Of a stretch of 64,000 nucleotides of DNA, positions 24,213 through 57,430 are shown one piece after another; the stretch's first letter is position 1; each line of letters begins with the position of its first letter. The translations under genes were made by a program, and so were the position numbers. The notes below the pieces were generated by a model, which saw nothing but the letters and a program-made list of their open reading frames with translations, ran no database searches and was not told where the DNA came from. This DNA is from Callorhinchus milii (taxonomy: Eukaryota): NCBI RefSeq assembly GCF_018977255.1, contig NW_024704742.1, positions 43,526,001-43,590,000 on the forward strand, given 5' to 3'.

Positions 24213-24263
24213 GGGCTGAGTGCAAACAAAAAAGTACAGTGTGCAATCCTCTAAGTTATATAA
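24213..24263 (+). promoter_or_regulatory. Paralog 1 proximal promoter: two MRE cores plus TATA box
   Basis: GGGCTGAGTGCA at 24213-24224 (reverse complement TGCACTCAGCCC), GTGTGCA at 24239-24245, TATATAA at 24257-24263. Confidence 0.75.
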
Positions 24264-24400
24264 TTCAGATCCTGCACTTAAACAGACAGTTGATAACTGA
24301 GATTCCATGTGAGGAATCAAGCTTGCCATTGAACCCAAACAGAAGATATTGTTTGTAAACTACTGTTGGGTAAAATATTTGCTGCTGAGTAGAATAAAAG

Positions 24401-25066
24401 ATGAAAAGTTCAGTGTTGAGCATGTTACTTTTATTTGGAGCCTTTGTGACATTGCTTGCAGTGCTGCCAGGGAGTTCTGCTCATCCACGAAGCTTTAAGG
24501 ACAAGTGGAAGAAGATAAAAGATTCTGTGTATCATTTCTTCCATCCGTTCACTCCAATGAAAAGTGGTCCCAGGTATGGAATTTGCAGCTTTGAACCCAA
24601 TAGAACTTTGACATCTGGACAGCTGAATATAATAGGATACATCCTCTTCAAGCAAGATGAAGCAAAGAACAAAGTCAAAGGCTTTTTTTCCCTGGATGGT
24701 TTTCCAAAAGTTACATCTGTTCATGCAATTCACATACATCAGTTCGGAGATCTGACCTACGGATGCAAATCCACTAGCAAACACTTCAACCCATACAATG
24801 TTAAACATCCAAATCACCCTGGAGATTTCCCTAATTTGGAGACCAAACATGGAAAAATTAGAGAATTGCTCCATAATCTTCGGGTGACCATGTATGGACC
24901 TGATTCAATTTTGGGCCTCGGGATAGTCTTGCATGAGGGCAAGGATGATTTAGGAAAAGGTGGAAATCCAGAAAGTCTTATTCATGGAAATTCTGGGAAA
25001 GCATTGGCATGCTGTACAATCGCAATCAGCTCTGGCAAATCTTGGGAAGAAATGGTGCCACAATAA
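24401..25066 (+). CDS. SOD3: Extracellular Cu/Zn superoxide dismutase (SOD3)-like paralog 1, 221 aa; all metal ligands kept, Arg186->Ala
   Basis: Signal peptide. The motifs HAIHIHQFGDLTYGC, HFNPYNVKHPNHPGDF, VLHEGKDDLGKGGN and GNSGKALACC align with human SOD3 (HVHQFGDLSQGC, HYNP..HPQHPGDF, VVHAGEDDLGRGGN, GNAGRRLACC). Single-exon ORF; AATAAA at 25062 overlaps the stop. Confidence 0.95.
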   Translation: MKSSVLSMLLLFGAFVTLLAVLPGSSAHPRSFKDKWKKIKDSVYHFFHPFTPMKSGPRYGICSFEPNRTLTSGQLNIIGYILFKQDEAKNKVKGFFSLDGFPKVTSVHAIHIHQFGDLTYGCKSTSKHFNPYNVKHPNHPGDFPNLETKHGKIRELLHNLRVTMYGPDSILGLGIVLHEGKDDLGKGGNPESLIHGNSGKALACCTIAISSGKSWEEMVPQ

Positions 25067-27059
25067 ATATCATGTTTATTTGATTTTTTTAAGAGGTTGA
25101 TCAATTTTATTAATCTGCTTTGTCACCAAAAAGGAAAAAACTTCCAAGTATTGCATGAACAAAAAAGCCAGTTTATTTCTCTACAGTAGTCATATAGTAA
25201 CTTGTTTTATCCCCAAAACTTCATCAAACAATTACAGCCTCTTATTGAGCAGAGAATTACGTTCTGCTTTAAATTCCAATGAGTGGCACTGATCTTAGTA
25301 CTCCGGGACGCTATCTTGTGTGAAGGACACTATATAAATGCAAGTTGTTGTGTAAAATTCTCAATTTTTACAGCTCCTACCTTATTTCAGCAGCCTCATG
25401 ACAAAATCACATTTTGGTACTGCATAGCTGCCTGATGCTATTGCAAAATTAGCACAATGAACTCTAATACCTCTGTACATGCAAAAAAAACTTTTATTTT
25501 ATTTTTTATGATCTCTGCCACCAAATAATGCCAGTGGTGATCGCGAGAGATACCAAATGTCATTAGAAGCCGACCTATACAATGTCCGATTACTTCAAAG
25601 AATTGTGAAAATGTTTTTCCAAATTAAGAATGATTTTAAGAATTTTTTAAATTTCTGCTTCGTCTTACATTTTGAGACAGGGTTAGTTGAGAAAGCAAAC
25701 TAAATGTGTGGATGATTAACTACTGTTTGAAGTTTTGTATTTCAAAAATAGATATTCCTTTTTTTAAAGAAGTACAGTGAAGGCTATAAAATATTTGCAT
25801 TAAAAAAGTGATGGGACTGTGGAACATACTACCAGCATAGTTGGTGAAAAAGAAACTTCAAAGTGTTTCAAAATGAAGCTAATCAAATTCCAGGAAAGAA
25901 AAAGAAATCAGTTATGAGATATTGAGATAAATGTGGCAAAGAAGTCTTTTGAAAAATTTGATTGGTACACTTCTTGGATCGATGGAGTGGTCCTACCTGA
26001 AACTGATTTATTACTAATATGTAGTAACAGAGAAGGACAGCATTCAACCTTCTTGCCTGTTCACCCATTTTATAATCTTGTTCAATCTTTTAATCTCAAT
26101 TTCTCTCTTTTGTTACCCTTTGCTTTACAAGTATCTACCTGTCTCGATTTGAAATATTCACAACATTATATGTCACATTAGTGGCCCTATTGATGGGCCG
26201 ATTCCATCCGAGCTTCCCCTGTCCCCTCCATTTCATCTGGTCCACCCGCTCCCTGTATAACCCATAAATGTTATGTTTCTGGAAGGGAAACACAAAAATA
26301 TTGCTTACGTGGCCCATGGACATTTCTCGAATAGGGCATTTAGCCCTCAGCAGCCAAAAGGTTGGATCTCCTAATATCTGGGTCATTACTTCTTGTCTGT
26401 TTCGAAAGTAAGGATAAAATATTATAATTTTCAGTCTGTGCAAGTGAGTTTGTACATTTTGAAACGGCTGTCACCAATGTGTTGAGTTGTGATGAATGCA
26501 AATTGATTCATACGACTATTTCTAACACTCAAAATGCCATGTGGAAAATATCACGTAGGGAAATGGTCAGTTGTAATGTTGGCGGTGTTTTTGTCAGATG
26601 TTCCAATTAAAGATCTGTCAGTGCTTTGATTTAAAATTTTGCTGAAATAATCTATTGGTAAACTCAAAATTAGACAAAGGCAAAAAACCTTACCATTGGA
26701 AACTTCTATCTTGTGTCCTGAATGGAATGATTTTAAAATGAATAAAAATCTCCACATTTAATGCCTGTGATTTTTTTTTATTTCAAGTGCTCTGGGATGC
26801 TACCCTGGGTGAGGGGTGCTTGGGGAAGACAAGTTTGCAGGGCTATAGGGAGAGAGCAAGGGAGTGGGATTGATTTGGATAGCTCATTCAAAAACCTGGC
26901 ACAGACACAATCGGCCAAATTGCCTCCTTCTGTGCTGTATAATTCTATGATTCTATAATTCTAAATGCAAGTTGTTGTTATTTGATAGTTAATACAGTAC
27001 TTTCATCAAACAACAGTCACTCTTTAGGTGGTGCTTCGGGTAGTTTCCTTTGCCTGGGA

Positions 27060-56362: not shown

Positions 56363-57304
56363 ACATGTTAAGTGGAATGATAAGTAAAGCGGAGTCACTT
56401 TTTAACAATTTGTACGGGAAGCATCCGGGGTATTGATAGGATGGTTACTAAAGTGGTAATAACGAGTTAAACCAGTGTTTTCTTATCAGGAGTTTATTAT
56501 ATTGTATATTAAAAACACTTTAATATACAGCTTATAAAATGTTTTTCCCTATCTATTGACTTGAGTGAGGCATGAAGTTATATCCCTCTTCCCTAGCCAC
56601 TGTTGCACACACAGCAGGATATGTAACTACTTTCTCACACAAGTCAAGTGAGCTGCCTTTGCCAAGGCATGCCCTACTTGCTTATCACAATTACATTTAG
56701 ATTACATCAGATTATTTTCATGTATGAAATGCATAATATATTCCCTTCACATTTGCCGGGTGTCTGACACATATGGAAACCCATCACCATGTTTAAGAGT
56801 ATCCTACCCAAGCTGAGATTTCCATACATCCCACCTACACATGGAAATTCCAGAGATGGATTGTTGGAATGGAGTGCCACTCTCTCCCTGGAGGTCCACA
56901 TCCTGTTTACCTAATTCTGGAAAGTATTAGGCACAGGTTGCCAAGAGCCAAGGCTTGGGGACCCCAGAGTGTGCATTGGGGTACTACTGGCGTCTCACCA
57001 GTTAAAACTACAGTACTGCTGCTGGTGATTGTCTCATGTTGTTATGCCAAATATATGAAGAAAAAGCCTAACACCGTTTTTTGTTCATTTTGCTAAAATC
57101 TACTGGAATAAAATACATTTAAAAATGTAATTTGATGATTCGGATTCATCCAATGCCAAAGTCCTCCTTGTTCTTCAGATATTTATAAAACTTGGATGTG
57201 AAATTGACAGATTGCATCTGACTAGATCCTCCCATTTTAACATTGCCCACTCACTCACTGTTCATGCTGCAGACTCTGGTAACCTATTTACTGCATTCCA
57301 TTCC
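56363..57304 (+). repeat. Upstream region of paralog 4, duplicated at 61830-62735
   Basis: Near-identical over about 56617-57304 vs 62059-62735; the ORF-track peptides from the two copies are almost the same. Confidence 0.95.
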
Positions 57305-57375
57305 ACTCTCCCTCCTCCTTTCAGTCGATTGAAACATTATGGAAATAAACGCGATTTCAAAGACAGTCGCTGAAT

Positions 57376-57430
57376 GGACTGAGTGCAAAAACAAAAAAGT
57401 GCAGCGTGCAGCTTTCCACGTCATGTAAGT
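57376..57430 (+). promoter_or_regulatory. Paralog 4 proximal promoter: two MRE cores, degenerate TATA
   Basis: GGACTGAGTGCA at 57376-57387, GCGTGCA at 57404-57410; CATGTAA occupies the TATA position. Confidence 0.65.

Follow-up and report, generated by a model that had tools for sequence, protein, structure and literature searches.

The element described here is a promoter cassette shared by four tandem genes of the Cu/Zn superoxide dismutase family in a 64,000-nt stretch of the elephant shark genome (Callorhinchus milii, G000:C1:43526001-43590000). We refer to the whole of this stretch as the window and to its four paralogs as copies 1 to 4. The cassette extends from a 12-bp element that resembles a metal response element (MRE), through a second element of the same kind and a TATA box, to an initiator-like CA. 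It is very probably a conserved TATA promoter, the proximal promoter common to a tandem family of secreted genes derived from SOD3. Its sequence suggests a candidate MRE-bearing promoter with plausible sites for MTF-1, and we regard the chances as evenly balanced that the twin elements are functional MTF-1 sites that would confer metal responsiveness. The original prediction spoke of all four paralogs sharing this arrangement. That description fits the window, but the cluster continues past the window's 3' end, where a whole-genome search located a pseudogene (L008) and four intact paralogs (L002, L001, L003 and L004). A homologous cassette is present in 5/5 of these outside promoters, and the counts over nine promoters given below include them.

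The cassette is conserved above the coding sequence

Taking identity as the mean over pairs and aligning coding sequences by codon, the cassette is 0.71 identical among the four window copies versus 0.47 for their coding sequences. Over the 28 pairs formed by eight paralogs the corresponding values are 0.68 and 0.525. DNA upstream of the cassette, compared without gaps, falls to 0.21-0.30, which is the random level, and the predicted excess of cassette conservation over proteins and flanking DNA is thus borne out. The conserved blocks are, in order, GGRCTGAGTGCAAA, AAGTRCWGYGTGCA, an 11-nt spacer, TATATAATTCRGATCC, CTGCACTT and a CA located 26-29 nt past the start of the TATA box. Weaker blocks follow downstream in the 5' untranslated region (ACTGAGATTCCAAG, TTTGCAATCTGC and GATTTGCCNCTGAA), and a weak module lies 50-90 nt upstream of the first element. 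In copy 1 this module occupies 24150..24175 on the + strand (CCTCAGTTGAATGA..TTTTGG), and its TTGA.T and TTCTGG columns are common to 7-8 of the 9 promoters in a nine-way alignment.

Gene conversion between neighbouring genes is common, and one account of these data would be that the promoter similarity is a remnant of duplication or of promoter gene conversion, with no regulatory meaning. It is favored by the tandem placement of the paralogs on one strand. Against it, the proteins of the four window copies are only 22-37% identical in pairwise comparison and their coding DNA only 0.41-0.54 identical, yet three copies have the first element unchanged and the fourth differs by a single base. 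Furthermore, the upstream DNA is at random level, and conservation comes in blocks, between variable spacers and with indels, and does not form a uniform conversion tract. We consider such a remnant highly improbable. Because invariant blocks alternate with variable, indel-rich spacers, the mosaic points to selection on binding sites and not to gene conversion, which we rejected on this pattern as the cause of the conservation.

Both elements match the metal response element

The pattern GGRCTGAGTGCA has four matches in the window, all on the + strand, versus 0.01 expected, and none of 100 shuffled sequences reached four. These matches start at 24213, 35947 and 48516 (GGG form) and at 57376 (GGA form), which places them 188, 192, 243 and 183 nt upstream of the ATG of copies 1 to 4, respectively, as had been predicted of an MRE-like 12-mer upstream of each gene. 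Read on the - strand, the first element is TGCACTCAGCCC in copy 1 (24213..24224), copy 2 (35947..35958) and copy 3 (48516..48527), and TGCACTCAGTCC in copy 4 (57376..57387). The 12-bp MRE is described as a TGCRCNC core followed by GGCCC in PMC11503025, and PMC4879176 likewise gives the core and places multiple copies of it in the proximal enhancer-promoter region. We scored each element by its matches over the 11 informative positions of the 12-bp consensus. By this measure the first element reaches 10/11 against TGCRCNCGGCCC in copy 1, 10/11 in copies 2 and 3, and 9/11 in copy 4.

All eight elements of the four window cassettes fit TGCRCNC on the - strand, in agreement with the original prediction, and they are 8 of the window's 45 such cores (36 are expected in 64 kb). 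Over copies 1 to 4 the two elements score 8-10/11 including the less conserved GC-rich flank. High scores are concentrated in the cassettes, with three of the four 12-mers in the window that score at least 10/11 being first elements and 7 of the 10 cores that score at least 9/11 lying inside cassettes. As a guard against motif-shopping we enumerated 2048 patterns with the shape of the MRE core, among which only TGC[AG]C.C is present at least twice in all four cassettes. The sole other 12-mer scoring 10/11 is at 4617 on the - strand, in a GC-rich stretch (3400-5800; GC content of 0.64 at 4001-6000) where both strands carry long open frames and Pfam gives no match.

Genome-wide, the exact 12-mer has 321 matches in 0.99 Gb versus about 236 in an estimate that assumes uniform composition, and it is therefore neither a repeat family nor the mark of a widespread regulon. 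The sequence AAGTGCAGTGTGCA has 26 genome matches, 3 of which are within the cluster. The exact 12-mer occurs in 0/5 of the outside-window loci, the three matched loci being copies 1, 3 and 4 of the window.

A mouse MRE-d/c oligonucleotide contains TGCACTCCGCCC (PMC12701871). This sequence and TGCACTCAGCCC are one base apart, as the original prediction noted for mouse Mt1 MREd, and the difference falls in the flank, at a position where it is MREd that deviates from the consensus. As a control from the same species we used the metallothionein locus (L010, G000:C14:13412891-13415977), which has five MRE cores within about 260 nt upstream of a TATA-like box. The metallothionein MREs score 7-9/11, and three of the five carry the TTTGCAC 5' flank that is also seen in the first element of the SOD cassettes. 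In their fit to the MRE consensus, the SOD cassettes are no worse than the elephant shark's own metallothionein MREs. A tandem CA-rich repeat with CCATGCACAC in its unit lies in intron 1 of the metallothionein gene (L010 positions 1140-1400); the 10 extra TGCRCNC matches found there are probably by-products of the repeat and not MREs.

The second element, TATA box and predicted start

The second GNGTGCA core that had been predicted in all four copies is found at 24239, 35974, 48537 and 57404, which is 14, 15, 9 and 16 nt past the first element, and the region around it is the best-conserved block over the nine promoters. On the - strand the second element of copy 1 (24232..24245) is AAGTACAGTGTGCA, with the core TGCACAC at 24239-24245 and a score of 8/11 by hand count. 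Copy 2 has AAGTGCTGTGTGCA at 35967..35980 (core at 35974-35980, 9/11) and copy 4 has AAGTGCAGCGTGCA at 57397..57410 (core TGCACGC at 57404-57410, 9/11). In copy 3 the element is GAGTGCAGTGTTGCA at 48537..48551 and also scores 9/11, with its core shifted to the 5' half (TGCACTC, 48537-48543). Here a 1-nt insertion breaks the usual 3' core, and a change of the adjacent half-element from AAGTGCA to GAGTGCA makes a new one, so that the total is still two. Each window promoter thus has two MRE cores, located 11-48 and 32-64 nt upstream of the homologous TATA position.

The TATA box of copy 1 is TATATAA at 24257..24263 on the + strand, 11 nt after the second core, and in copy 2 the TATA run TATATATAA (35992..36000, + strand) likewise starts 11 nt past the second core and is followed by an initiator-like TCAGT at 36021-36025. 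Copy 3 has a (TA)n(TG)n microsatellite (48564-48591) between its second core and the homologous TATATAG (48592-48598), microsatellite and TATATAG together spanning 48564..48598 on the + strand, and an initiator CCAGTCC is present at 48616-48622. The corresponding region of copy 4 (57422..57450, + strand) begins with a degenerate CATGTAA at 57422 and continues with GTGCACTT and an initiator-like CCAGA at 57446-57450. TATAWA is therefore found in copies 1 to 3 and is degenerate in copy 4, which together with the 11-nt spacing in copies 1 and 2 is the arrangement that was predicted. A CA is located 26-29 nt past the first base of the TATA heptamer in 4/4 window copies, and in copy 1, L001, L002 and L003 the spacing is 27-28 nt by hand count. 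The ATG lies 144 nt beyond the first base of the TATA run in copy 1 and 147 nt beyond it in copy 2.

Past the TATA box of copy 1, at 24272..24284 on the + strand, is CTGCACTT, a near-inverted copy of AAGTRCAG, and then an initiator-like CA at 24283-24284. We infer that transcription starts at this CA, 27 nt past the first T of the TATA box. The octamers AAGTGCAG (24232-24239 in copy 1) and CTGCACTT (24272-24279) are reverse complements of each other, such that an inverted TGCAC pair brackets the TATA box; the pair is kept at 8/8 positions in L003 and L008 and at 7/8 in copies 1 and 4. The predicted 5' untranslated regions contain upstream ATGs, in the form of an ATG-TGA in copy 1 (24307-24312) and a 4-codon upstream open reading frame in copy 4 (57531-57545).

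The promoter would on this reading span about -150 to +1, with a start roughly 110-140 nt before the ATG that is fixed by the TATA box and the CA 26-29 nt on, and the two 12-14-bp bottom-strand elements would be positioned at about -71/-60 and -52/-39. Because the TATA-to-CA spacing is fixed and no splice acceptor is conserved before the ATG, the data suggest one continuous first exon. A start elsewhere, whether in an exon lying upstream or at a site 5' of the TATA box, would make the conserved block a 5' untranslated, intronic or enhancer element and not a core promoter. This would fit the non-coding first exon of mammalian SOD3 genes, and it would also fit the public gene model P0001, which counts 24248-24307 as exon, beginning 9 nt upstream of the TATA box. 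The near-constant TATA-to-CA spacing in the window and outside it argues otherwise, as do the similar distances to the ATG in copies 1 and 2 and the lack of any conserved AG with a pyrimidine tract before the ATG. The gene models are weak evidence, as P0001 drops the signal peptide and a second model, P0002, joins two paralogs. We therefore judge a start elsewhere to be quite unlikely.

Core content varies among the outside promoters

Outside the window only L003 keeps two MRE cores (9/11 and 9/11). L004 has one, the second core only, without a TATA box, and the L008 pseudogene has one as a result of a deletion that fuses the two elements. L001 has no core, reading TGCACTT and TTCACAC at these positions, and has a perfect TATATAATTCAGAT. 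L002 also has no core and a perfect TATATAATTCAGAT; at its first element (~1306-1330) it carries an exact octamer, ATGCAAAT, and not GAGTGCAAAT. A switch of factor at this element of L002 is possible. Judging by L001 and L002, MRE cores are dispensable in some paralogs, and because these two have lost them, regulation has probably diverged within the cluster. Over the nine promoters there are 12 MRE cores in 7/9, all on the - strand, with two cores in 5/9 and none in 2/9.

Which factor binds the cassette

Both elements are of the MRE type (TGCACNC, flanked by partly GC-rich sequence), which makes MTF-1 the most likely factor; it would drive zinc-, cadmium- or copper-responsive as well as basal transcription of copies 1 to 4. 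Control by MTF-1 would be full for L003 and partial for L004, the probable canonical SOD3 gene. One or more further factors would also take part, because conservation extends to the AAGT, to the spacer that precedes the TATA box and to the inverted CTGCACTT downstream of it.

Several observations weigh against metal control by MTF-1. Both cores are present in only 1/5 outside promoters (L003), with one in L004 and L008 and none in L001 and L002, yet in the latter two the TATA box and the remainder of the block persist. Within the first element the obligatory C7 is kept in 5/8, while the free N position is an A in 8/8, and the AAGT of the second element, which gives the non-consensus core TGCACTT, is kept in 8-9/9 promoters. 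Because AAGT and the N position are invariant while C7 varies, selection is apparently not simply for what MTF-1 requires and the block is constrained by more than that. The first exon of P0001, an unreliable model, starts at 24248, upstream of the TATA box, which is a misfit with a TATA-directed start. A literature search that covered articles without their supplements found nothing tying an SOD3 promoter to MTF-1. In PMC11503025 the copper-dependent transcription of mammalian Sod3 is ascribed to Atox1 acting on GAAGA. One paper, PMC10047149, questions whether MTF-1 occupancy can be predicted from motif matches, at least under cadmium. The original prediction of a shared MTF-1-type promoter is partly supported, by the 8-10/11 match to the MRE and the conserved TATA box and initiator, and is weakened by the incomplete retention of both cores outside the window and of C7 in the first element.

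These points raise the possibility, which we hold tentatively and as the lesser one, that one or more other, tissue-specific factors (forkhead, NK2-type or an unknown zinc-finger protein) bind the TGCAC/AAGTGCA repeats and the A-rich GCAAAYA. The fit to the MRE would then be incidental and there would be no metal response; such a factor would instead keep a rapidly evolving secreted family strongly expressed in a single tissue. Each promoter has three to four copies of the TGCAC/AAGTGCA motif, among them the inverted AAGTGCAG/CTGCACTT pair around the TATA box that is exact in L003 and the pseudogene. The invariant bases go partly beyond MTF-1 needs (AAGT, the N position and the spacer before the TATA box), L001 and L002 retain the block and TATA box with no MRE core, and RYAAAYA overlaps the 3' side of the first element in 5/9 promoters. 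Conservation of the promoter above the coding sequence, together with conserved signal peptides, also fits a tissue-specific secreted family.

On the other side, the MRE core is more widely retained than any alternative factor consensus that we tallied. Of 13 consensus patterns counted over the nine promoters, only bare TGCAC (8/9) and TATA (7/9) match or exceed the MRE core. The forkhead pattern is found in 5/9 and TCF in 5/9, the latter exclusively in the outside-window group, and GAAGA is found in 0/9 cassettes. TGCRCNC remains the sole pattern of the 2048 enumerated that is found twice in all four cassettes, and the 12-bp match reaches into the GC-rich flank, which a factor recognizing only TGCAC leaves unexplained. 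C/EBP, NK2, GATA, octamer, xenobiotic response element and TCF patterns were each rejected as they are present in some promoters only.

If the elements do bind MTF-1, an early-branching vertebrate would have an MTF-1-controlled extracellular family derived from SOD, forming a secreted arm beside the metallothionein and ZnT1 response, and the cluster would offer a natural series of promoters with two, one and no cores that is suited to dissecting MRE function. Whatever the factor, the cassette is a clear case of a promoter conserved above the proteins it serves, as the DNA identities over all eight paralogs indicate. If the sites are non-functional, what is left is a conserved TATA promoter of an ordinary kind, serving a tandem expansion specific to the lineage. 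What is unusual about the locus is that its promoter is conserved above its proteins and that its paralogs form a natural series with two, one and no cores. A broader scenario is that a holocephalan SOD3 gave rise to a battery of at least eight secreted, mostly catalytically eroded paralogs under a twin-MRE promoter held tighter than the coding sequence, forming an extracellular, metal-inducible family driven by MTF-1 and distinct from metallothionein, and that L001 and L002 escaped metal control by losing their cores. We think this scenario unlikely as a whole.

Comparison with known promoters

Metallothionein-type MRE promoters, such as mouse Mt1 with MREa-d and the elephant shark's own L010, resemble the cassette in having several TGCRCNC cores in the roughly 100 nt that precede the TATA box. 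The resemblance extends to the first element, with its single-base distance from mouse MREd and its TTTGCAC flank. Unlike the species' own metallothionein promoter, which has five cores in both orientations, the cassette has two in one orientation. It also differs in its A/T-rich context, in conserved bases that exceed the MRE, in its product, which is a secreted Sod_Cu protein and not a metal-binding peptide, and in its regulatory role, which is predicted from sequence.

Mammalian SOD3 promoters are described as TATA-less, with a non-coding first exon and under Sp1/Sp3/Ets control. The elephant shark genes belong to the orthologous family, and metal-dependent transcription, which in mammals is reported to run through Atox1 and GAAGA (PMC11503025), would be a further likeness. 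They differ from mammalian SOD3 in the lack of GAAGA from all nine cassettes and in having a TATA box and an apparently continuous first exon. The literature search described above found nothing on the elephant shark SOD3 cluster, and a scan of metagenome contigs for the second element together with a TATA box returned 0 stretches.

The Cu/Zn-SOD gene of the rat, SOD1, has been reported to be metal-induced through an MRE. It differs from the present case in that this SOD1 is cytosolic and is encoded by one gene, whose promoter is of another kind.

The antioxidant response element (ARE) and the Maf recognition element, bound by NRF2 and small Maf proteins, offer another likeness, in that the bottom strand of the first element, TGCACTCAGC, resembles TGACTCAGC with one extra base. 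The TCAGC part is lost in L001, L003 and L004. The original prediction had named a Maf/AP-1 half-site as an alternative; the ARE TGACNNNGC is found in 0/4 window cassettes and the AP-1 site TGASTCA in 0/9 promoters, and both were rejected.

Genes and proteins of the cluster

The window contains four single-open-reading-frame genes, all on the + strand and each with a Pfam Sod_Cu match, and tblastn within the window revealed no SOD copy beyond these. Metal ligands (H46, H48, H63, H71, H80, D83 and H120 in SOD1 numbering) and the active-site Arg (R143) were scored by alignment in each protein. Copy 1 (24401..25066, + strand) encodes 221 amino acids with a signal peptide and Sod_Cu domain (E 1.1e-28, 100.7 bits) and keeps 7/7 ligands with loss of the Arg143 equivalent. 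Its open reading frame is 100% identical to the public 221-amino acid protein P0005, and UniRef names for its relatives are those of Callorhinchus milii proteins. Copy 2 (36139..36723, + strand; 194 amino acids) has a degenerate Sod_Cu domain of 22.9 bits, below the Pfam cut-off of 28.9 bits that the other three copies exceed, and keeps 0/7 ligands. Copy 3 (48759..49502, + strand; 247 amino acids; E 3.8e-23, 82.8 bits) keeps 6/7, with Ser at the His120 equivalent, and copy 4 (57559..58254, + strand; 231 amino acids; E 1.5e-14, 55 bits) keeps 2/7. The catalytic Arg is kept in 0/4 window proteins by alignment. The proposal that the genes encode secreted metal-handling proteins is not supported, given the ligand counts of copies 2, 4 and 3.

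The part of the cluster outside the window occupies G000:C1:43591698-43630116, which brings the total to at least 8 intact genes and 1 pseudogene, all on the + strand. The pseudogene has in-frame TAA, TGA and TAG stops. The whole-genome search revealed no SOD3-like gene outside the cluster except for one short match on contig C4, which could represent an exon from a different Cu/Zn SOD gene, for example SOD1. A foreign SOD3-like protein matches L004 best (52% identity), and L004 is the only paralog that keeps the ligands and Arg143 equivalent at 8/8 positions in the alignment, and for these two reasons it is probably the canonical SOD3. In the same alignment copy 1, L001 and L003 keep the ligands and have lost the Arg, and copy 3 and L002 have lost the His120 equivalent. 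A family that is losing its catalytic residues in this way bears on the origin of pseudo-enzymes. Signal peptides remain similar among the paralogs. In a protein tree copy 1 clusters with the outside-window paralogs and foreign SOD3s (support 90/95), and copies 2, 3 and 4 are placed on long branches; the tree is rooted at its midpoint and 5/8 of its inner branches are unresolved.

Public gene models P0001 and P0002 look faulty. P0001 joins a splice GT at 24309 to an AG near 24520, losing the signal peptide, and reads the TATA region (24248-24307) as coding, and P0002 fuses the 5' part of L002 with the 3' part of L001.

Repeats in and around the genes

Copy 3 is rich in simple repeats, with a GCT/GCC run (48800-48875) that encodes a Leu/Pro-rich extended signal peptide, and a CA-rich array of about 1 kb (49552-50537) is located directly 3' of its stop codon. 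A Pfam search of 10 other long open reading frames in the window detected only endonuclease and reverse transcriptase fragments of long interspersed nuclear elements (LINEs). LINE remnants are located at 16014-16832 (- strand) and 41494-42051 (+ strand), where the Pfam matches are to an endonuclease-reverse transcriptase domain (E 3e-12) and, weakly, to RVT_1, and further repeat-derived open reading frames fill the intergenic DNA.

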